IMG/VR virus record: IMGVR_UViG_3300037424_000800
Coordinates: 1-27,159 of that record
Length of the DNA stretch: 27,159 nt
Origin: a virus
Taxonomy: Duplodnaviria; Caudoviricetes
Strand: one strand, 5' to 3'
Shown one piece after another: positions 2,435-23,426 of the stretch. The first letter of the stretch is position 1. Every line of letters begins with the position of its first letter. A program made the position numbers and the translations under genes. Below the pieces are notes generated by a model, which was not told the DNA's origin, did no database searches, and worked only from the letters and a program-made list of their open reading frames with translations.

Positions 2435-2856
2435 AGCAGGTTTCCTTTCATTTTGCTGATTATCTCGTCCGCGACCTGGGCGGGAGTTTGCTTTGCTGTT
2501 TTTCCATTGAGCTGCACCAGCGCCCACCCGTTTGCATATAACCACCGCGCCTTGATCTCGTCGTATGCCCACATTTTAGCGGCGCCATGCCATCCCTTTG
2601 ACCCGTCCACCTCAACGGCGATCAGTTGCCCGTCCATTTGGAAAGCTACGTCGATATATTGTTCCATCCCCGGTTCGGTATGGATGGGGTGTTCGTAGGC
2701 GATCCATTCCGGGTTGAGTAGGGTAACGGCGAGGCGGGCTTTTGCCTCTGCTTTGGTTGGGCGCTGACGGCGTTCTTGTGCTGCGAAAACGGCGCGGCGC
2801 TTTCCCGCTGTCCTCGCTGTTTCGCTGGTAAACGTTCCAGATGATCTAGCCATCAT
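2431..2856 (-). CDS. DUF559/Vsr-like PD-(D/E)XK endonuclease
   Basis: PTKAE...YIDVAF...LIAVEVDG..WH...DEIKARWLYANGW pattern. Confidence 0.7.
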   Translation of the reverse strand: MMARSSGTFTSETARTAGKRRAVFAAQERRQRPTKAEAKARLAVTLLNPEWIAYEHPIHTEPGMEQYIDVAFQMDGQLIAVEVDGSKGWHGAAKMWAYDEIKARWLYANGWALVQLNGKTAKQTPAQVADEIISKMKGNLL

Positions 2857-6761: not shown

Positions 6762-6802
6762 CAAACAAAAACCGGGCGTGGGGGGGGCACGTCCGGTTTT
6801 TG
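6762..6802 (-). terminator. intrinsic terminator, possibly bidirectional
   Basis: CAAAAACCGGACGTG-C7 loop-CACGCCCGGTTTTTG on the minus strand, immediately upstream of P2. Confidence 0.8.
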
Positions 6803-6831
6803 CCTTCACACAATAAGGAGCGAAGTGAACC
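6762..6831 (-). ncRNA. candidate anti-SD small RNA 1 (~70 nt)
   Basis: Own promoter (6838-6866), no ORF, UUCAC/GUGAA stem with loop UUCGCUCCUUAUUGU, ends in the terminator. Confidence 0.55.
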
Positions 6832-6837
6832 GATCAA

Positions 6838-6866
6838 AGTATAGAACCAACGCTGTCAAAAGTCAA
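6838..6866 (-). promoter_or_regulatory. sigma70 promoter for candidate sRNA 1
   Basis: TTGACT-17 bp-TATACT; the -35 overlaps the stop codon of 6863..7663. Confidence 0.7.
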
Positions 6867-10938: not shown

Positions 10939-11135
10939 TCTGGTTCGCTCCTTTTGGTTTTAGTGTGGTAAACGCCGCATTCCACGCAGCGGGAGTATAC
11001 GGTTAAAGCGTCCACGGCGGCCAGGGTGTGGTCAGTCTCTTTTCCACAGCCCATGCAGAACTGCTTCTCGGTCTTGATTATGCACGCGTAGGCGGCGCGC
11101 ACCATCTCAACGAACTGAATAACCTCGGCGCTCAT
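10935..11135 (-). CDS. small Zn-ribbon protein
   Basis: CMGC...CVEC; start placed at the ATGA overlap with the dnaB stop. Confidence 0.65.
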   Translation of the reverse strand: MSAEVIQFVEMVRAAYACIIKTEKQFCMGCGKETDHTLAAVDALTVYSRCVECGVYHTKTKRSEPE

Positions 11136-12496
11136 GCTTCCCACCACTCCTCAGTGACGCGCCCGTTATCCCTGGTCGCAATGTGTCCCACTGTGACAGT
11201 GTCAAACCGGGGGATACTATCATGCACGTAGAAATCGATGCTGGCTAGCCCGCGACCGCCTTCTCTGAATTTTACAAATGCCAGCCGCGCCAGGCTTGGG
11301 GCTTCGGGGATCTTCACTAGAAACGCTATCAGGTCCCCGTCGTGTACCTGCTGCCCGCTGCCACGCATGAGGCTCATGCCTGCCTTCCCAGTGTCCATGC
11401 CCTCTTTGACCACGCTGTTCACCGTGATCATGGCGACCTTAAATTCCTTCGCCACCGTGCGAACCTCCCTGGACAGGATCGCCGATTTCTCGGTTTCGTC
11501 CTTCGCCTTGACTCCCTCCATTAGCAAAAGATAATCCAGCACCACCCATTCGATGTCATACTCAGCCTTTAACCGGGCAACCTTCGCTCGAAACAAGCCC
11601 GGCGTCAAGCGCGCCGTATCGTCCAACCAGACGGGCAGACTGTCGCCGAGCGAAACCCCGTTTACGAGCTTGTGCCAGTCATCACCCTCTAACCTTCCAG
11701 TCTTTAGTCGCCGGGTTTCTATGTTTGACAGAACGGATAGGTCACGGAAACCCATCTGCATCTTCTGCATCTCCGGTGAGAAGATCGCGCCGGCATGGTT
11801 ACCCTGTTCCGGCATAGCCATTTGTAACCCTATCTGATGGGCGAGTTTGCTTTTCCCTATCCCGGGTTGACCAGCGAGGTAAAACGACTCGCCTGGCTGC
11901 AGACCACCGGTATAGTTGTCCAGGTCGATGAACCCGGTCGGGATGCCCCAAACGTCAGTCGGGTTCTTTGACCGTTCCACGACCTCGTCATAGGTGCTGC
12001 TCAATACATCGCCCAACCTGGACGTGCTACCGTCATTGTTAGAGAACGACCCGGATATTTCACGGGTGATGCGCATGCTTGATTCTGTGATCGGCTCAGA
12101 TGCATAGGCAGCTTTTGCCAGCTCATTCGCCTGGCGCAGGATGTCGCGGCGCTGTGCCTTATCGCGCACAATGGCGGCATAATGCTCGATCCCCTGGGAG
12201 TTCGGTACGGCGCTGACCAGCGACGTGATGAATGCTGGTCCGCCGATCTCGGAAAGTTGCCCTGCGCGCTCTAGCTCGTCTATCAGGGTCACGTAGTCCG
12301 GTATGACCTTGCGCGTCCGCAGGGCGGAAAGGGCTTGCCACACCCACCGGTAGCGGTGAACGTAGAACTCCTCCGGGGTCAAGTCGATCAGATCGATCCC
12401 GGCAGGGTCAATGATCGCTGCGCCTAAAACTGCTTCTTCGGCGTCTTTGCTAAAAAGTATCCTGGTTTCGCCTTCGCCTTCGTCTTCCTGGCTCAT
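11132..12496 (-). CDS. dnaB: DnaB-like replicative helicase
   Basis: AEEAVLGA N-domain, GIPTGFIDLD, GQPGIGKS Walker A, VVLDYL, RGSGQQVHDGD. Confidence 0.92.
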   Translation of the reverse strand: MSQEDEGEGETRILFSKDAEEAVLGAAIIDPAGIDLIDLTPEEFYVHRYRWVWQALSALRTRKVIPDYVTLIDELERAGQLSEIGGPAFITSLVSAVPNSQGIEHYAAIVRDKAQRRDILRQANELAKAAYASEPITESSMRITREISGSFSNNDGSTSRLGDVLSSTYDEVVERSKNPTDVWGIPTGFIDLDNYTGGLQPGESFYLAGQPGIGKSKLAHQIGLQMAMPEQGNHAGAIFSPEMQKMQMGFRDLSVLSNIETRRLKTGRLEGDDWHKLVNGVSLGDSLPVWLDDTARLTPGLFRAKVARLKAEYDIEWVVLDYLLLMEGVKAKDETEKSAILSREVRTVAKEFKVAMITVNSVVKEGMDTGKAGMSLMRGSGQQVHDGDLIAFLVKIPEAPSLARLAFVKFREGGRGLASIDFYVHDSIPRFDTVTVGHIATRDNGRVTEEWWEA

Positions 12497-12524
12497 GGGT
12501 CATCCTTTCATTTATCTGGTAGTG

Positions 12525-13418
12525 CTATTTTACTATGGTTTCTGCGTGAAACACGGGCGGTAGTGCGGCTACGACTGCCTCGGGTGAGCGCACCCTGTCA
12601 TTCTCGCTGAACCCACCCCGCTTGAACACGTCTAGCATCCCCTGAACGTTAGACGGGTTATACCCGCGCCCTAACCATTCATGCACCACCGCGCGCCACT
12701 GGTCAACCTTGTGGCGAACTTCGCCAACCGCAGCGACGACCTCCGGACGCCACGCGATGGGCATGTGATAGCGGGTTTCTGACCGGAACGCTTTGACCGC
12801 CGGGTGGCTCAGCAGCGGGTCGCGCTTTTTCCCTTTAGTGTTGAGCGGGACAATAACCTTGACCCCTTGCCCTTGATCGCCCTCCTTCCCTAACGCATCA
12901 AAGAAATCCTGTTCGGTTTGTTCAGTAGAGGGGGCGGGATGTTCATCCCGCGAACTCATGTTTTTATTTATATTCATGTATGATGATTTGGGTGACATTT
13001 TTGCACGTTTCTTGCTTAAAATGTCACCCCCTCCCTCGCTTTCTTTGCTTAAAATGTCACCCCCACCCATGGGGGGTGACATTTTGTCACCCCCCATAAT
13101 AACGGGCGATGATGTATTTACATCAATTGTTTTGGGTTGGAATTTTGGTTTCACTGGGATCTGGTTCACGTTGATTTTATAAACGTTTGTTCCCCACTGG
13201 CTAAAACCCTGATGTACCATGATTTGTTTCTGAACCAGGGAGGCAGTGATACGTTGCACCTGGCGTTCTTCATAGTCTGTTTTCCATGCCACGTAACCAA
13301 TGGACGGGTAAACTCCCTCACCGTCATCATTGGCGTGGTCGGCATACGCAAGTAGGACGTACTTCTCTGGTCTTGGCAGCGCCGATTTCCATACCCTTGA
13401 CATCAATTCAACGCTCAT
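12525..13418 (-). CDS. phage replication initiator (N-terminal winged HTH)
   Basis: MSVELMSRVW...KYVLLAYADHANDDG..YPSI...ERQVQR pattern; lies upstream of dnaB; contains iterons; AAGGAG 8 nt before ATG 13418. Confidence 0.85.
   Translation of the reverse strand: MSVELMSRVWKSALPRPEKYVLLAYADHANDDGEGVYPSIGYVAWKTDYEERQVQRITASLVQKQIMVHQGFSQWGTNVYKINVNQIPVKPKFQPKTIDVNTSSPVIMGGDKMSPPMGGGDILSKESEGGGDILSKKRAKMSPKSSYMNINKNMSSRDEHPAPSTEQTEQDFFDALGKEGDQGQGVKVIVPLNTKGKKRDPLLSHPAVKAFRSETRYHMPIAWRPEVVAAVGEVRHKVDQWRAVVHEWLGRGYNPSNVQGMLDVFKRGGFSENDRVRSPEAVVAALPPVFHAETIVK
12961..13097. repeat. putative replication origin (iterons plus AT-rich tract)
   Basis: Five TGTCACCC-core copies in both orientations, including a 20-bp direct repeat TTGCTTAAAATGTCACCCCC (13012-13031, 13045-13064) and a palindrome (13069-13097); AT-rich tract at 12961-12990. 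Confidence 0.85.
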
Positions 13419-13552: not shown

Positions 13553-13620
13553 CGCCGTTGACTTTTATTCCGCCCGTAGCGCCGGAGTTGCCAGCCCCGG
13601 CGGGCTTTGTTGTTACCGGT

Positions 13621-16018: not shown

Positions 16019-16072
16019 GGTCTAGTTCCTTTCTGCCGGGGTTATTGCCAGCCCCGGCGCTAGTGGTGGGTT

Positions 16073-18232: not shown

Positions 18233-18246
18233 TAGAGTTAAGCCAG

Positions 18247-18271
18247 ACCACCCGCGGATCGGGCGGGTGGT
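18247..18271 (-). terminator. hairpin upstream of P5 (possible terminator, no U-tract)
   Basis: ACCACCCGC-7 nt-GCGGGTGGT. Confidence 0.4.
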
Positions 18272-18303
18272 AGCTGCTAATGAAGCTCCTGGTAGCGGCG
18301 CTG

Positions 18304-18768
18304 CTAGAGTTGTTCGAGATTCTCGCAGTGACCGTAGAACCAGCGCCATAATTTGATGCGGCGTTCCCGGTCAGAGCGTTCGACGTATCCTTCGATGCTC
18401 TCACCCTTGCGCCGGGGCAATTCCTTTGTGTCAAGCCGGTCGGGGTGGTACTGTTCCAGGTAGCAGCCGGTCACGTTCGGAATTCGCAACGTGATGCACC
18501 CGGAGTCGTCCTGCTCGATGCAGGTTTCCCCGTTTTCGTCGCGCTTGGTATGACCGCTGATGGCGACCACGTAAATGTGGGGTTGACCGGCGATGATCTT
18601 GGCTTTGATGATCGCTTTGTGGACGTACTGGGCGTAGTCCAGGTGGCTGGGCTGGATTTCGACGCCGAGATCCTTGCTCAGGTATCCGGCGATGTTTTCC
18701 AGTTCCTTGTCGCGCCCGGTGATGGTATGGGCGTCGATGAAATAGGTATTGCTGGTCTTGGTTGTCAT
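18304..18768 (-). CDS. hypothetical protein
   Basis: 154 aa, TGAAAGGAAACTAGACCATG, downstream of P6. Confidence 0.8.
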   Translation of the reverse strand: MTTKTSNTYFIDAHTITGRDKELENIAGYLSKDLGVEIQPSHLDYAQYVHKAIIKAKIIAGQPHIYVVAISGHTKRDENGETCIEQDDSGCITLRIPNVTGCYLEQYHPDRLDTKELPRRKGESIEGYVERSDRERRIKLWRWFYGHCENLEQL

Positions 18769-18819
18769 GGTCTAGTTTCCTTTCATTTAGTCAGTGGTTA
18801 GGCTTATTCTTACACTCCA

Positions 18820-18858
18820 ATAATAACCGATATTCCCGTGTTTGTCAACAGGCAATTT
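18820..18858 (-). promoter_or_regulatory. shared-box sigma70 promoter P6
   Basis: AAATTGCCTG-TTGACA-17 bp-TATTAT. Confidence 0.9.
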
Positions 18859-18874
18859 TAGATTGGAATGCCAC

Positions 18875-18911
18875 AAAAAAGCGCACCGCCCGGAGACCAG
18901 CCGGGCGGTGC
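18875..18911 (-). terminator. intrinsic terminator
   Basis: GCACCGCCCGG-7 nt-CCGGGCGGTGC-GC-TTTTTT. Confidence 0.85.
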
Positions 18912-18947
18912 TAAATGAAAGGAACGCGGGGGGTGTATGACCCCGCG
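18875..18947 (-). ncRNA. candidate anti-SD small RNA 2 (~72 nt)
   Basis: Hairpin CGCGGGG/CCCCGCG, unpaired linker UUCCUUUCAUUUA, then terminator; extended -10 directly upstream. Confidence 0.6.
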
Positions 18948-18952
18948 ACCGT

Positions 18953-18976
18953 ATTATAGCATAGTTTCCACTATGC
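18953..18976 (-). promoter_or_regulatory. extended -10 promoter with adjacent palindrome
   Basis: TGcTATAAT (18953-18961) overlapping the DUF3560 stop; inverted repeat GCATAGT-GGAA-ACTATGC at 18959-18976. Confidence 0.6.
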
Positions 18977-19739
18977 GTTTTGCCCAGTAGTGAGCGTCGC
19001 TGGTAAGGAACCGCTGCCATGCGCCTTCGCTCGGCGCCCATCTAAAACCGTGCTCTTTCAAAGCGTCACGTACCGCCTTATCCGGTTTGCCGGGGAAGAA
19101 TATCTGCAGCCGGTTCTCGTCAGCGTTCTTGACGATGCGCACCCCGTTGACCTCGGTTTCCCTATTCTGCCGGGTGGCTGCCCGTTCCAGCGTCTTTAGG
19201 CGCTCTTTCAGGCGGGTGATGTTGCCCCGGTTGTTCGCCAGGGCGTAATCTGGAAATCCCAGGCGACCAACGAAATCGGGTTCATAGAGCTTGCCAACAT
19301 GGGTTTCGGTGAAGCCCATCGTTAGCAGCGCGGCCCGGTTGGATGGAGTATCGCCGTTACGTATGATCTTGTTGGTGGCTTTCATCTTCTCCTGGTCAGC
19401 TTCCAGCTTGGCAATCCGCGCCTTGATCTTCTCGATGGCGTCCGGGTCATCGCTGGAAATCGCCGCGTTGCTTTCAGCGGCTGCGGCGCGGCTGGCGGCG
19501 TTGGACGCTTGCTCAGCGAGCTCCGCTGATTTGCGAAAACCGGACTCGATCTTGGCGCGGTAGCGCCGGTCACGCTTCTCGCTGTGATGACCAACCAGGA
19601 TCGGTTGCCCAAACGGGATCACGTCTGCCATATCGTGCGCACGCTTGCGCATAGTGACTGACTGATCAAAGAGGTTATCGGCACGGTTCTTGAGTCGTTC
19701 TATGCGTTGCTGTCTTTTTTGTTCGTAATCACTTTTCAT
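18954..19739 (-). CDS. DUF3560 domain protein
   Basis: IPFGQPILVGHHSEKRDRRYR, ISSDDPDAIEK, RLQIFFPGKPD...GFRWAPS; GGAGG RBS before ATG 19739. Confidence 0.85.
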   Translation of the reverse strand: MKSDYEQKRQQRIERLKNRADNLFDQSVTMRKRAHDMADVIPFGQPILVGHHSEKRDRRYRAKIESGFRKSAELAEQASNAASRAAAAESNAAISSDDPDAIEKIKARIAKLEADQEKMKATNKIIRNGDTPSNRAALLTMGFTETHVGKLYEPDFVGRLGFPDYALANNRGNITRLKERLKTLERAATRQNRETEVNGVRIVKNADENRLQIFFPGKPDKAVRDALKEHGFRWAPSEGAWQRFLTSDAHYWAKRIVETML

Positions 19740-19950
19740 TGGGTTCCTCCTGAGTTGTTTCTTCCTCGAACATATTAGCAATGGTATCTCGATCATTTGA
19801 GGCGTGGATGGTTTTCCAATCCCCGAACACCTGGGACTGGCGTTGCACTTCATAAACCACACTGAGGTTTTCAAATACAACGGCGATCATGCGGTGAGCT
19901 GCGCCGTACCTGTCTTTGCGCTGGTACATCAAGATCGTTTTTTTGTTCAT
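19729..19950 (-). CDS. hypothetical protein
   Basis: 73 aa, coupled to neighbours. Confidence 0.7.
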   Translation of the reverse strand: MNKKTILMYQRKDRYGAAHRMIAVVFENLSVVYEVQRQSQVFGDWKTIHASNDRDTIANMFEEETTQEEPNEK

Positions 19951-20831
19951 TGGTCATGCTCCCTTTCGTGTAATGGGCTATATGCCCAGGTTAGCTCGTA
20001 CCGGTACGCCTCACTGTCCCGGTCATCGTTGGGCGGCAGCGGGTCAACGGTGAAGACCCAGGTGTGCGGGACGGCGTTGACGGGATCGGATCGGTCGGTG
20101 TGGACGCAGAGTGTTCCGAACGGCATGGTTGCCCACATGAGCGAGAATGGGCGGTTGTAGCTGGCGTAGACGTGGCGGGCTCGGCGCACCTGGGTAGCTC
20201 GATCTTTGTCTTCCTCGCTGATCGCCTTCATCAACTCATGGTGCCACGCGCCGGCTGCATTATGGCGCAGTTTCGATAACCGGTCATACCCGCACAGTTC
20301 GGCGAAGCGATAAAACCGGTCGGAGTCGTCGCACCATTTAACGGGGCGGGTGGGGTACGCCGTGCTTAGGTCAACGATGAATGGCTTATAGGATTTCGGG
20401 TCTAACGCCAGGGTGATCAAGTCATTGATTTCCCACCCGGCGCGGTTTACGCCGCGCACTGCCTGTTCCAGCGCCAGTAAAACGTCCCGGTTGATCCGGC
20501 GGTGTTCGATCTCCTGCCCGTACACAGGCGCCAGCTTGCGTACCAGCCAGGGGCGACCATCCGGGGTCATGACCTCGGTCCAGTTCTTAGGGAAGAAGGG
20601 CTTATCAGCGAACTCCCGCAAGAGGTCGATTTCCTTAGTAGGATACAGAGCGTCGGCGTTGGGGTATGGGCGGGCTATTAGGGGTTTCCAGACGAATCCG
20701 TCGGGGGTCAGGAAAGCGCCGCCGGTGTGGACGCCATCGGGCAACCCGTCTGCGCGTGTCCCGGTCAGCTTAGTGCAGCCGTCGAATGGCGGTTGCCCGT
20801 ACATCTCGATGGGGAAGGATAGCTTAATCAT
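19947..20831 (-). CDS. hypothetical protein, possibly kinase-like fold
   Basis: 294 aa; VWK, KE, INDL and IVDLS occur in protein-kinase-like order (tentative). Confidence 0.6.
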   Translation of the reverse strand: MIKLSFPIEMYGQPPFDGCTKLTGTRADGLPDGVHTGGAFLTPDGFVWKPLIARPYPNADALYPTKEIDLLREFADKPFFPKNWTEVMTPDGRPWLVRKLAPVYGQEIEHRRINRDVLLALEQAVRGVNRAGWEINDLITLALDPKSYKPFIVDLSTAYPTRPVKWCDDSDRFYRFAELCGYDRLSKLRHNAAGAWHHELMKAISEEDKDRATQVRRARHVYASYNRPFSLMWATMPFGTLCVHTDRSDPVNAVPHTWVFTVDPLPPNDDRDSEAYRYELTWAYSPLHEREHDQ

Positions 20832-20832
20832 C

Positions 20833-21015
20833 TTATGACCACCCTTTTGGAACTATTCCGAAGTCGATAGTTATTCCAAAACCGAGAACATAAATATCAA
20901 GTCTTCGAGCAACAAAAGCGATGCTAATGATCGTGATGCCGAACAAATATAGCTCTATCCCGAAATTGTTATGATTAGTGTTCTTCCAGTCTGATCTAAA
21001 CTTAATGCGTTTCAT
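20833..21015 (-). CDS. small hydrophobic protein
   Basis: 60 aa, GAAAGGAAACGACCATG. Confidence 0.7.
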   Translation of the reverse strand: MKRIKFRSDWKNTNHNNFGIELYLFGITIISIAFVARRLDIYVLGFGITIDFGIVPKGWS

Positions 21016-21037
21016 GGTCGTTTCCTTTCGTTTGTTG

Positions 21038-21187
21038 GATTAAGTGTTCACTGAGAGCCAGAACTCGGCGGTTCTGCTTCGCATGGTTAACGAAGTGGGG
21101 CGGGACCGGGGCTTTTGCCTATGTATCCCCGACCTTGTATCCGGTGCTTGGGTAAGACCCTCTTGTGCTCTCGGTCAACACTCAATC
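21038..21187 (-). ncRNA. multi-branched structured RNA in a ~320-nt intergenic gap (candidate)
   Basis: 21-bp imperfect closing stem (21038-21058 with 21167-21187) enclosing hairpins CAGAAC/GTTCTG, CTTCG/CGAAG, ACCGG/CCGGT and GGGT/ACCC. Confidence 0.6.
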
Positions 21188-21335
21188 TGGTAAGGTTCTA
21201 AATCCGACCCGGCTCTACCGCCGTCTTCCTTGCTTATCCCCCTGGGGGGAGCCTCCACGATTATCCTTCGGCACGCCGTGTTGTGATCGCTTTGGTTTCG
21301 GACCTACCCCCATGATAAGGGCGGGGATCGGTTTG

Positions 21336-21524
21336 TTAATTTACGAAGTAATCTGTATGCCCGTATAGGTGGCGATAAAACTGGTTTATGATCATTCCTG
21401 ATTTCTCTAGCTCGTTTATGGTTTTGAAGTTGAGCCAGAAAGGCCATATTACGATGCGGTTTCCTGGTCCGACGTATCGGGCTTTTAGAACCTTGCAAAT
21501 AGCCTGTTGCCTATTCTTGGTCAT
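21336..21524 (-). CDS. hypothetical protein, first gene of the leftward arm
   Basis: 62 aa, GAAAGGAA RBS, downstream of P7. Confidence 0.65.
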   Translation of the reverse strand: MTKNRQQAICKVLKARYVGPGNRIVIWPFWLNFKTINELEKSGMIINQFYRHLYGHTDYFVN

Positions 21525-21646: not shown

Positions 21647-22933
21647 ATGGCAAAGATCAGTGATCTGATTCCCGATTCAAAAAACGCCAACCGCGGCACG
21701 CGGCGCGGCTTGAAGGCGCTGGACACTAGCCTGCGGCAATACAAAATTGGGCGCGGCGTTCTGGTTGATAAGCACGGCAAGATTATCGCCGGGAATAAGA
21801 CGGTGGAGAGGATAGCCGATATCGCACCAGATACGGAGGTCGTTCTAGTGCCGACCACGGGTGACCAGCTTGTAGTTACTCAGCGCATGGACTTGGACCT
21901 GGATACCGACCCAGAGGCGCGGGCGCTGGCTACCTACGATAACCGCGTCGGGCAGCTTGACCTTGATTGGGATGTGGAAGCGTTGAATGATGTAGGGCTG
22001 GATGTGCTGGGCGATCTGTGGACGGATAAGGAGCTGGCAGAGATTGGCTTCAACGTCGAGGAGCCGCCGGAAGACCCAGGCGCGCAGATTGACCGCGCGG
22101 AGGAACTGCGTGAGAAGTGGGGCGTGGAGCCGGGACAGTTGTGGCGGTTGGGCGAGCACCGGCTGATATGCGGGGATTGCACGGATAGGGCGGTGGTGGA
22201 GAGGGTGATGCAGGGAGAGAAGGCGAAACTTACCGTGACTTCTCCGCCTTACGCAGTTGGCAAGGAATACGAAGAGGGTGTGAGCTTTGATGACCACTTG
22301 GCGTTATTGCGTGGTTTTACAGATCGGACAATTGAGATAACTATTCCGGGTGGTTTTATTTTTACGAACTTTGGTGAGATAGCGGCGCTATCTCACGCCT
22401 CGCCACTTACGGGAAGCAAGCGCCAATGTATTTATCTTATCTCTCGTGATTACTGGCAGATATACCACGAGGAGCGCGGCTGTGATTTATATGCCATGCG
22501 AATTTGGTATAAACCATTCAATCGCCTACAGCAACCATTTTGGAGTTATCACACCAGCATCCCCCACCACCAGGAATGGGAACATATCTGGACTTGGCGC
22601 GTGCCGGGCGGGGACGGTGACCGTGTTTGCGATTGGGATATTTCAGTGCATGCAATTTGGGACACGCGCAACGAGGCAACTGAAGATCATCCACTTACCC
22701 GCCATGTAGCCGCCTTTCCGGTATGCCTACCGGAAAGGGCTATAAAGGCGCACTCAATGAAGGGTGAAGTTGTATATGAACCATTTAGCGGTTCCGGCAC
22801 GACCCTGATCGCCTGCGAGCGGCTGGGGCGCAAGTGTCGCGCAATCGAGATCAGCCCCGCATACTGCGCCGTGGCGATACAACGATGGGCGGATATGATC
22901 GGGCAAGAGCCGGTGCTATTGGAGGCGGGATGA
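21647..22933 (+). CDS. ParB-like N-terminus plus beta-class amino-methyltransferase (SPPY, N4-mC likely)
   Basis: IIAGNKTVE/DNRV N-domain, HRLICGDC, TSPPY, HVAAFP, EPFSGSGTT. Confidence 0.9.
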   Translation: MAKISDLIPDSKNANRGTRRGLKALDTSLRQYKIGRGVLVDKHGKIIAGNKTVERIADIAPDTEVVLVPTTGDQLVVTQRMDLDLDTDPEARALATYDNRVGQLDLDWDVEALNDVGLDVLGDLWTDKELAEIGFNVEEPPEDPGAQIDRAEELREKWGVEPGQLWRLGEHRLICGDCTDRAVVERVMQGEKAKLTVTSPPYAVGKEYEEGVSFDDHLALLRGFTDRTIEITIPGGFIFTNFGEIAALSHASPLTGSKRQCIYLISRDYWQIYHEERGCDLYAMRIWYKPFNRLQQPFWSYHTSIPHHQEWEHIWTWRVPGGDGDRVCDWDISVHAIWDTRNEATEDHPLTRHVAAFPVCLPERAIKAHSMKGEVVYEPFSGSGTTLIACERLGRKCRAIEISPAYCAVAIQRWADMIGQEPVLLEAG

Positions 22934-23098
22934 TACAAGCGTCTCAATTGCATTCTGGAATGAGCCATAATCAGCAATCAGCCTGTCAATCCAATGTTGG
23001 GGCAGGCGCACCGTCTTTTGTGTCATCCGAACGCCGAGGCGGGGCTTTCGCCCCGCTCCTGCTCGTTTGCCGCCGTGCTGTTTCTTTGTTTTGTTCAT
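22916..23098 (-). CDS. small DNA-binding protein (GGKRAGAGRK plus RHH-like segment)
   Basis: HGGKRAGAGRKP followed by TQKTVRLP...LI. Confidence 0.7.
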   Translation of the reverse strand: MNKTKKQHGGKRAGAGRKPRLGVRMTQKTVRLPQHWIDRLIADYGSFQNAIETLVSSRLQ

Positions 23099-23367
23099 CG
23101 CGGTACTGTTACCTTAACTTTCTTACCCATGCCGTTAATGATCTCGTGGGTGGGGGTTGGGGCGTATTCGCCGTCAAGGTGGAGCCGATCGCTTATGTCT
23201 GTTAATATTTCCTGGATATCCAGGAGGTCTCCTACGTATCCCCAGTGGTGTCCGGCGCGGTCCCGTGATGCTTCTTTGTCGTGCCTCTCAAGTCCTGCCT
23301 CAATTTTCTTTAGCAGTCGCTTGATTTGGGCTTGGCTGGTTTCGTATGCTTCTAGGCTGGTGTTCAT
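23095..23367 (-). CDS. hypothetical protein
   Basis: 90 aa, AAAGGAG RBS, ATGA-coupled to 22916..23098. Confidence 0.75.
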   Translation of the reverse strand: MNTSLEAYETSQAQIKRLLKKIEAGLERHDKEASRDRAGHHWGYVGDLLDIQEILTDISDRLHLDGEYAPTPTHEIINGMGKKVKVTVPR

Positions 23368-23392
23368 CGTTATCTCCTTTATTCTTTATCTT

Positions 23393-23426
23393 ATATTGAT
23401 TATAGCATACAGAATCAATATGTCAA
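23393..23426 (-). promoter_or_regulatory. consensus promoter with overlapping operator-like inverted repeat
   Basis: TTGACA-16 bp-TATAAT with extended TG; ATATTGATT (23393-23401) and AATCAATAT (23413-23421). Confidence 0.8.

Follow-up and report, generated by a model that had tools for sequence, protein, structure and literature searches.

A candidate trans-acting small RNA against the shared ribosome-binding site of early genes in an uncultured phage

The DNA analysed here, a 27-kb fragment (27,159 nt, hereafter the window) of an uncultured phage that is estimated to be 24% complete, carries a 72-nt element which, judging from its sequence, is probably a trans-acting small RNA (sRNA) directed against ribosome-binding sites (RBS) and damping the early and replication genes of the phage. 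The unit is a real feature, probably a base-pairing sRNA, and falls outside the named families (Yfr1, c4 and the other Rfam families). The best support for an anti-RBS RNA comes by analogy, namely from what appears to be covariation of seed and RBS between phages, foremost in a second phage, G019, whose early genes have another RBS and whose own unit carries the corresponding complement.

The 72-nt unit and its genomic setting

The sequence of the window is present in one sediment metagenome; the sequencing runs listed with it comprise no RNA run and one DNA run, which may be its source. None of the collections searched contains a close relative of the phage. Its minus strand, from 21524 to 197, holds the early and replication genes, which encode an O-like initiator, DnaB, an SNF2-type helicase, a methyltransferase, a DUF3560 protein and many unknowns, and its plus strand holds the terminase and two methyltransferases. 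Chloroflexota-type names were found in 27 of the 44 genome-bin relatives of the terminase, the best four included, and the phage host is therefore probably an Anaerolineae-like bacterium. Five Chloroflexota genomes (29.1 Mb) served as stand-ins for this host. The unit lies at the end of the first early operon, where the following features were delineated.

18954-19739, minus strand: DUF3560 gene, which closes the first early operon and immediately precedes the unit
18953-18961, minus strand: extended -10 (TGn + TATAAT), TGCTATAAT, a putative promoter element
18875-18946, minus strand: candidate 72-nt small RNA, with a presumed start at G18946, 7 nt past the -10
18926-18946, minus strand: predicted 5' hairpin with 6 G-C pairs and a 9-nt loop
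18912-18925, minus strand: anti-RBS seed of 14 nt, predicted to be unpaired and accessible between both hairpins
18875-18911, minus strand: intrinsic terminator with an 11-bp stem, a 7-nt loop (18894-18900), two bases and U6
18820-18856, minus strand: next sigma-70-type promoter, one of the 7 early cassette copies

The perfect extended -10 that an earlier note on this DNA had described is there, at 18961-18953 of the minus strand, and is one of two TGnTATAAT sites within the window. The stop codon of the DUF3560 gene, TAA at 18954-18956, lies within its TATAAT, so that the unit is also the 3' UTR or end of the first early operon and, with three bases in common with a stop codon, the -10 deserves less weight as a promoter. 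The arrangement of about 72 nt into hairpin, open tract and terminator was recovered in the predicted fold, which none of 200 shuffles matched in stability, and every position of the seed has a predicted unpaired probability of at least 0.9. Two G/C bases separate the terminator stem from the U tract. The same note had called the unit ORF-less, which does not hold strictly, as an 84-codon ORF (18787-19041, minus strand), with no known relatives tested, crosses it. By consensus matches only, promoter and intrinsic terminator enclose the unit in the way that is general for trans-acting base-pairing sRNAs. Searches of the window against Rfam gave no match at the gathering threshold and four matches at E up to 10.

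A second unit on the same strand shares this context, and both are tied to a repeated promoter.

6838-6866, minus strand: sigma-70-type promoter of the companion unit, overlapping the stop of the last gene
6765-6833, minus strand: companion unit, a CUCCUU-type seed and a terminator, followed by a promoter cassette
3813, 6749, 14859, 16565, 18230, 18856 and 21582, minus strand: the 7 copies of the early promoter cassette

The companion is probably identical to sRNA 1 of the earlier note. Six terminator-like hairpins occur on the early strand, only two of which are intergenic (18911 and 6796), and an anti-RBS tract lies just upstream of both; likewise, both units (18875-18946 and 6765-6833) directly precede a copy of the early promoter cassette. 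In the companion, the tract is complementary over 10 nt to the RBS of 10938 and over 8 nt, with additional wobble pairs, to that of the O-like initiator 13418, and its best partners are AAGGAG-type starts, among which is this initiator. The cassette itself is a strong sigma-70-type promoter that also has conserved sequence upstream of its -35, and GAAAGGA is found at the first gene downstream of every one of the 7 copies. Its interpretation as a phage-specific operator was rejected, as similar cassettes are present in unrelated phages (L002, L003, L023/L024 and L026) and in a chromosome-like record (L025).

Several other elements of the window were recorded in passing. Repeated and inverted GGGGTGACA-type motifs at 13020-13100, within the O-like initiator gene, probably mark a replication origin. 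Two similar GC-rich hairpins on the minus strand (13565-13615 and 16030-16065), upstream of the initiator gene and of gene 16018, could represent a shared protein or antitermination site. A hairpin without a U tail (18243-18275, minus strand) stands ahead of a promoter cassette, and its 3' side complements a CCAGAC box upstream of the Shine-Dalgarno (SD) sequences of 17611 and 18145. Between genes 21336 and 21015 there is a leader of about 300 nt (21040-21335, minus strand) that gave no Rfam match and could be a structured RNA. Two small genes at 22916-23426 (minus strand) lie downstream of a perfect 12/12 promoter and are inserted opposite to duplicated ParB-like/methyltransferase genes (21647 and 23790).

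Complementarity of the seed to early ribosome-binding sites

Three sites are matched by the seed over most or all of its length.

18777-18790, minus strand: 14-nt target site, the RBS of gene 18304-18768, a perfect complement of the seed
12503-12514, minus strand: 12-nt target site, the RBS of dnaB (11132-12496), a perfect complement
2442-2453, minus strand: 12-nt target site, the RBS of gene 2183-2434, located inside the end of the upstream ORF

The earlier note had placed and sized these three complements correctly, and the nine shorter complements of 8-9 nt that it named are all present as well, at starts 1820, 3752, 6686, 14800, 16018, 16483, 17611, 21015 and 21524; further matches were seen at starts 14063 (8 nt) and 18145 (7 nt). 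On the early-sense strand, the 8-nt core of the seed itself exists as a single copy over 1-21560. That the RBSs are standardised, as had been claimed, is borne out by GAAAGGAA, which is present at 11 of the 49 candidate starts of the window and has a density of about 400 per Mb there versus 278 sites in the 29.1 Mb of Chloroflexota sequence, i.e. some 40-fold higher. The 11-nt extended site occurs three times in the 27-kb window versus twice in all five Chloroflexota genomes. Because the core UCCUUUC also occurs within the 16S tail of two of these five genomes, GAAAGGA is, by its sequence, a Shine-Dalgarno variant, which makes matches of 8-9 nt cheap and expected from any such core. Three unrelated phages have seeds that contain this core, and these seeds match the identical 13 of the 49 window starts over at least 8 nt.

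The long matches exceed chance modestly. The seed extends the pairing on the 5' side of the three sites, and only 2 of 4096 hexamers score equally well in extending beyond the core; the composition-weighted p is 0.0006-0.0034, and 0.018-0.033 when the neighbouring gene is omitted. When both strands of the window are considered, the same three sites are the top three non-self matches of the seed, and 18768, dnaB and 2434 also rank as the top three of 45 start regions in predicted net binding energy (-15.5, -15.0 and -14.0 kcal/mol). For the 8-9 nt sites, the predicted net binding ranges from -13.9 to -3.6 kcal/mol, with 16018, 6686 and 14800 at -13.9 to -12.1 kcal/mol and with weak values for 1820 (-4.3 kcal/mol) and 3752 (-3.6 kcal/mol); two starts that lack the motif score -10.5 and -10.2 kcal/mol. 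The silencing of a regulon in trans, as put forward in the earlier note, is still the best reading, in which the 8-9 nt sites are not as firm as the top three. Equal silencing of these shorter sites finds no support, given the range of their predicted binding energies and the seeds of unrelated phages, which match them equally.

The longest match, 122 nt downstream, belongs to the next gene, 18768, which encodes a 154-aa product without a PHROG or Pfam family and without a named look-alike of weight; three full-length relatives (34-37%) were found among 1.8 billion representatives. It might be argued that the tract acts in cis only, by folding onto the RBS of 18768 in read-through RNA so that the gene is translated solely from its own promoter. 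Such sequestration has a precedent in T4 e, soc, 49 and I-TevI, as described in the cited part of the T4 literature (PMC3014915), and the hallmark of the e/soc type, a long transcript that hides the RBS and a short one that frees it, is seen in the predicted folds: six of the seven SD bases have an unpaired probability of about 0 in the read-through RNA versus 0.14-0.99 in the transcript from the gene's own promoter. The two G/C bases ahead of the U tract may also render the terminator leaky. However, an action in cis leaves the 12-nt matches at dnaB and 2434 unexplained, which by themselves reach p 0.013-0.033, as well as the unit of G019, which has no downstream gene on its strand. We therefore consider a purely cis-acting element rather unlikely, and hiding of the 18768 RBS in read-through RNA may add to the trans action of the sRNA without replacing it.

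Analogous units in other phages

No sequence homolog of the 72-nt unit was found. The exact 24-nt pattern of seed plus stem had no match in viral contigs, and blastn of both units against 150 loci returned nothing except the promoter cassette. Relatives of the DUF3560 gene (19 loci, 18 of which were read downstream) showed no such unit; relatives of the SNF2 gene (80 loci) had no other gene in common with the window, and the three inspected were without a unit. A search with the SSB-like gene yielded no locus, and the one locus returned for gene 18768 was spurious.

A comparison based on the terminase, whose closest relative (P0001) stands at 71%, comprised 21 whole viral records of 80 loci, chosen mainly for length, together with 13 of the 44 genome-bin loci; in each record, the commonest RBS 8-mer and an antisense copy of it ahead of a terminator were sought. 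The top 8-mer was present at 9 or more starts in four entries (the window, G019, G012 and G015), and three of these four records with a strongly standardised RBS have a unit that matches their own motif.

The most informative of these is G019, which was found via its terminase and has five early genes in common with the window, namely the SNF2 helicase (40%), the SSB-like gene, DnaB and two unknown genes. Its early-gene RBS is AAGGAGTTGAAAA, unlike that of the window. At the end of its replication operon there are a possible extended -10 over a stop codon, a hairpin, a complement of its RBS and a terminator, with part of the seed predicted to be paired. With a threshold of 8 nt, this seed finds matches at 20 of the 91 starts of G019 and at none of the 49 starts of the window; at 12 nt or more it matches six of its own genes (12-13 nt), including dnaB (13 nt) and one gene in a divergent operon on the opposite strand. 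Conversely, the seed of the window matches, again over at least 8 nt, 13 of the 49 starts of the window itself, 1 of 91 in G019 and 0 of 169 in G012. The dnaB gene is consequently covered by 12-13 nt in the window and in G019 via different seeds. The gene that follows the G019 unit is convergent, and hence no downstream target in cis exists there. In position, the counterpart of the G019 unit is the companion unit (6765-6833) and not the 72-nt unit.

G012 also has a hairpin, an open tract and a terminator, and its seed pairs with the GAGAGGA sites of this phage over no more than 8 nt (12 of 169 own starts and 2 of 49 window starts at 8 nt or more); it is a weaker third case, as a plain anti-SD sequence would nearly give its matches. 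No such unit was found in G015 (estimated 77% complete), whose RBS is equally standardised (11 of 178 starts) and whose 14 antisense copies, judged by eye, all resemble the starts of opposite-strand genes. The remaining 31 terminase-related entries, likewise assessed by eye, had no convincing unit, so that 32 of 34 are without one when G015 is counted. Alignment of the units of the window, G019 and G012 revealed no homology, and those of G019 and G012 are therefore analogs of the window unit and not homologs. The covariation of seed and RBS that the earlier note had proposed to look for in relatives is thus present in the form of analogous units in G019 and G012, but neither as homologs nor within a single family.

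A scan of viral contigs for the layout alone gave 43 matches, of which 17 are merely the starts of opposite-strand genes (at least 54 codons), and the layout can therefore arise without an sRNA. These matches were selected by pattern and weigh little. Among them, a prophage unit in G038 (L174:10001-10084) has a 17-nt perfect complement to an RBS of its own, the gene concerned lying 737 nt upstream on the strand of the unit, and L179 has a 13-nt match to its own RBS. L171:10001-10200 presents an extended -10, a hairpin, an open anti-GAAAGGAA tract and a terminator, followed by a promoter and a GAAAGGAA gene. In two related phages (L158:3993-4077 and L166:2179-2264), the seed of the unit is nearly the same as that of the 72-nt unit, the terminator is identical, and the 5' hairpin shows a compensating change. 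A strict detector run over 150 loci and the window found the 72-nt unit alone; as it missed the companion unit, it is no measure of rarity.

These surveys bear on the view that the unit is an ordinary operon terminator next to a chance or relic inverted copy of a leader, with the short matches arising from the repeated promoter-RBS cassettes. An SD-like core suffices for matches of 8-9 nt, the cassette is not confined to this phage, being present in unrelated phages and in a chromosome-like record, and over a third of the layout matches (17/43) proved to be gene starts on the other strand. Yet the opposite strand here contains frames of 8 and 17 codons only, anti-RBS tracts are found at both intergenic terminators of the early strand, and a unit against the own motif exists in three of the four strongly standardised records. 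Taken together, we regard this explanation as unlikely.

Far less probable is that GAAAGGAA on the plus strand is the real RBS of a short peptide and the minus-strand RNA its cis antisense, in the manner of a type I toxin-antitoxin system: a GTG and an ATG follow the plus-strand site at 8 and 12 nt and a promoter at 18583-18612 (9/12) faces that direction, but the frames of 8 and 17 codons are located in the hairpin, and the stretch from 18612 to 21518 yielded no plus-strand promoter in a consensus scan. It is hardly likely that the 14-nt inverted repeat (18777-18790 and 18911-18924) serves in DNA recombination to invert the promoter enclosed by its arms; terminator and promoter do lie between the arms, but the fragment is without an invertase-type recombinase and one arm is exactly the RBS, with similar copies at other RBSs (the contigs of one DNA run contained no inversion joint, which at about 6-fold contig depth proves nothing). 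It is equally improbable that the RNA mainly targets host mRNAs with the same SD variant, for although 22-106 GAAAGGAA sites stand before an ATG in each of the five Chloroflexota genomes, the 11-nt extended site is nearly absent from these stand-ins (2 in 29.1 Mb).

Known regulatory RNAs and the proposed role of the unit

In architecture, the unit is reminiscent of Yfr1 (RF01116), which has 54-69 nt versus 72 nt here, places two stem-loops around an unpaired anti-RBS tract of 16-20 nt versus 14 nt here, and blocks translation by covering the RBS, as we propose for the unit (according to the cited parts of PMC2190773 and PMC2796815). The Rfam model of Yfr1 aligns over the full length, yet with 17.9 bits it misses the gathering threshold of 38. 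The unit lacks the ultraconserved 11-nt motif of Yfr1, as this motif is given in the cited part of PMC2190773, and Yfr1 is described there as chromosomal and acting on host genes, whereas the seed of the unit fits the phage's own RBS and varies between phages. The best sub-threshold Rfam match was Rhizobiales-2 (RF01723; 35.8 bits versus 40, E 0.006-0.01), which is driven by the terminator-like stem, while in the alignment the first hairpin is placed ahead of the -10 and many pairs of the middle stem are broken.

The c4 RNA is located upstream of its target on the same strand, as is the case here. The c4 model matched the window neither at the gathering threshold nor among the four Rfam matches at E up to 10. 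According to the cited part of a review of phage sRNAs (PMC12197685), c4 (P1/P7) and sar (P22) are phage RNAs that pair with a phage RBS, similar to the predicted action of the unit, but they control one antirepressor operon, whereas the unit has matching sites at a dozen early genes; no antirepressor was identified in the window. The characterised phage sRNAs covered in that part either regulate a single phage operon or have host genes as their targets. The 6C RNA of Mycobacterium tuberculosis resembles the unit in being chaperone-independent and having multiple targets that include dnaB, and differs in its C-rich loops and chromosomal location, as far as the cited part of PMC6486639 describes it; the unit gave no 6C match in Rfam. 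In terms of outcome, the T4 nuclease RegB is similar, as a common SD motif marks early mRNAs for inactivation, but RegB is a protein that cuts, whereas here an RNA would mask the site; according to that T4 account (PMC3014915), no trans-acting small RNA of T4 had been characterised. Two presumed precedents were discarded: PAK_P3 sRNA2 is wrong as a precedent for an early RBS, the cited part of PMC4933390 naming tRNA loops and gp67, and the terminator-loop case in the cited part of PMC11979758 acts 'likely without base-pairing' and hence offers no direct precedent. In the openly accessible literature searched, no sRNA was described with which a phage targets an RBS common to its own early genes, and the main-text parts of the motif surveys PMC5737381, PMC10690425 and PMC2864571 name no such phage motif.

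A trans-acting sRNA would most likely work as follows. Host RNA polymerase would transcribe the unit constitutively, beginning with the start of infection, and would also produce it as the 3' terminus of the first early operon transcript; the two hairpins would protect the RNA and allow it to accumulate. Duplexes of 12-14 bp on the leaders of 18768, dnaB and 2434 would then block 30S binding without a chaperone, and the finding of Hfq in none of the five Chloroflexota genomes fits such long perfect pairing. The sites of 8-9 bp may serve as weaker secondary targets, and through the match of the companion unit to the RBS of the O-like initiator, both replication genes would be covered. The most likely purpose would be a delayed negative feedback that closes the early phase, comparable to the RegB nuclease in T4. 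Lytic timing is slightly favoured over the lysogenic silencing that the earlier note had offered as an option, as integrase, serine recombinase and HTH_3 repressor were found in none of four records, all of which are incomplete.

A bolder reading involves the terminator loop, which complements AGACCA in 6 of 45 start regions, as had been noted earlier, and does so in an order that is not colinear with the seed pairing. GACC(A)ATG is found at 11 of 49 window starts versus 7 of 1695 in relatives, and 37 of 16384 random 7-nt loops match one of the five commonest start-region hexamers. GACCA is carried by 8 of the 11 short-seed sites and absent at dnaB and 2434 (Fisher p 0.13). We tentatively speculate, at odds that we would not call even, that the starts bear a two-part barcode (GAAAGGAA, then GACCA before the AUG) read by seed and terminator loop, that a second RNA covers the AAGGAG class, that the two could act as a master switch for the early and replication genes without involving a protein, and that such phage-specific RBS/anti-RBS pairs may recur across unrelated phages. 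On geometric grounds, seed and loop pairing together would need a pseudoknot-like fold, which is plausible for the short-seed sites only. A colinear pairing of GACC with the four bases 5' of the hairpin was set aside, since these bases precede the predicted start.

If the proposed action of the sRNA is true, an RNA aimed at the RBS motif that this phage has standardised over its own early genes would amount to a translational switch at the level of a regulon that operates without a protein. Seed/RBS pairs that differ between phages were nearly orthogonal in the cross-test and would thus be candidate parts for synthetic control. For phage biology, the unit would represent an RNA counterpart of T4 RegB, and could explain why the early RBSs have become homogeneous in some phages.
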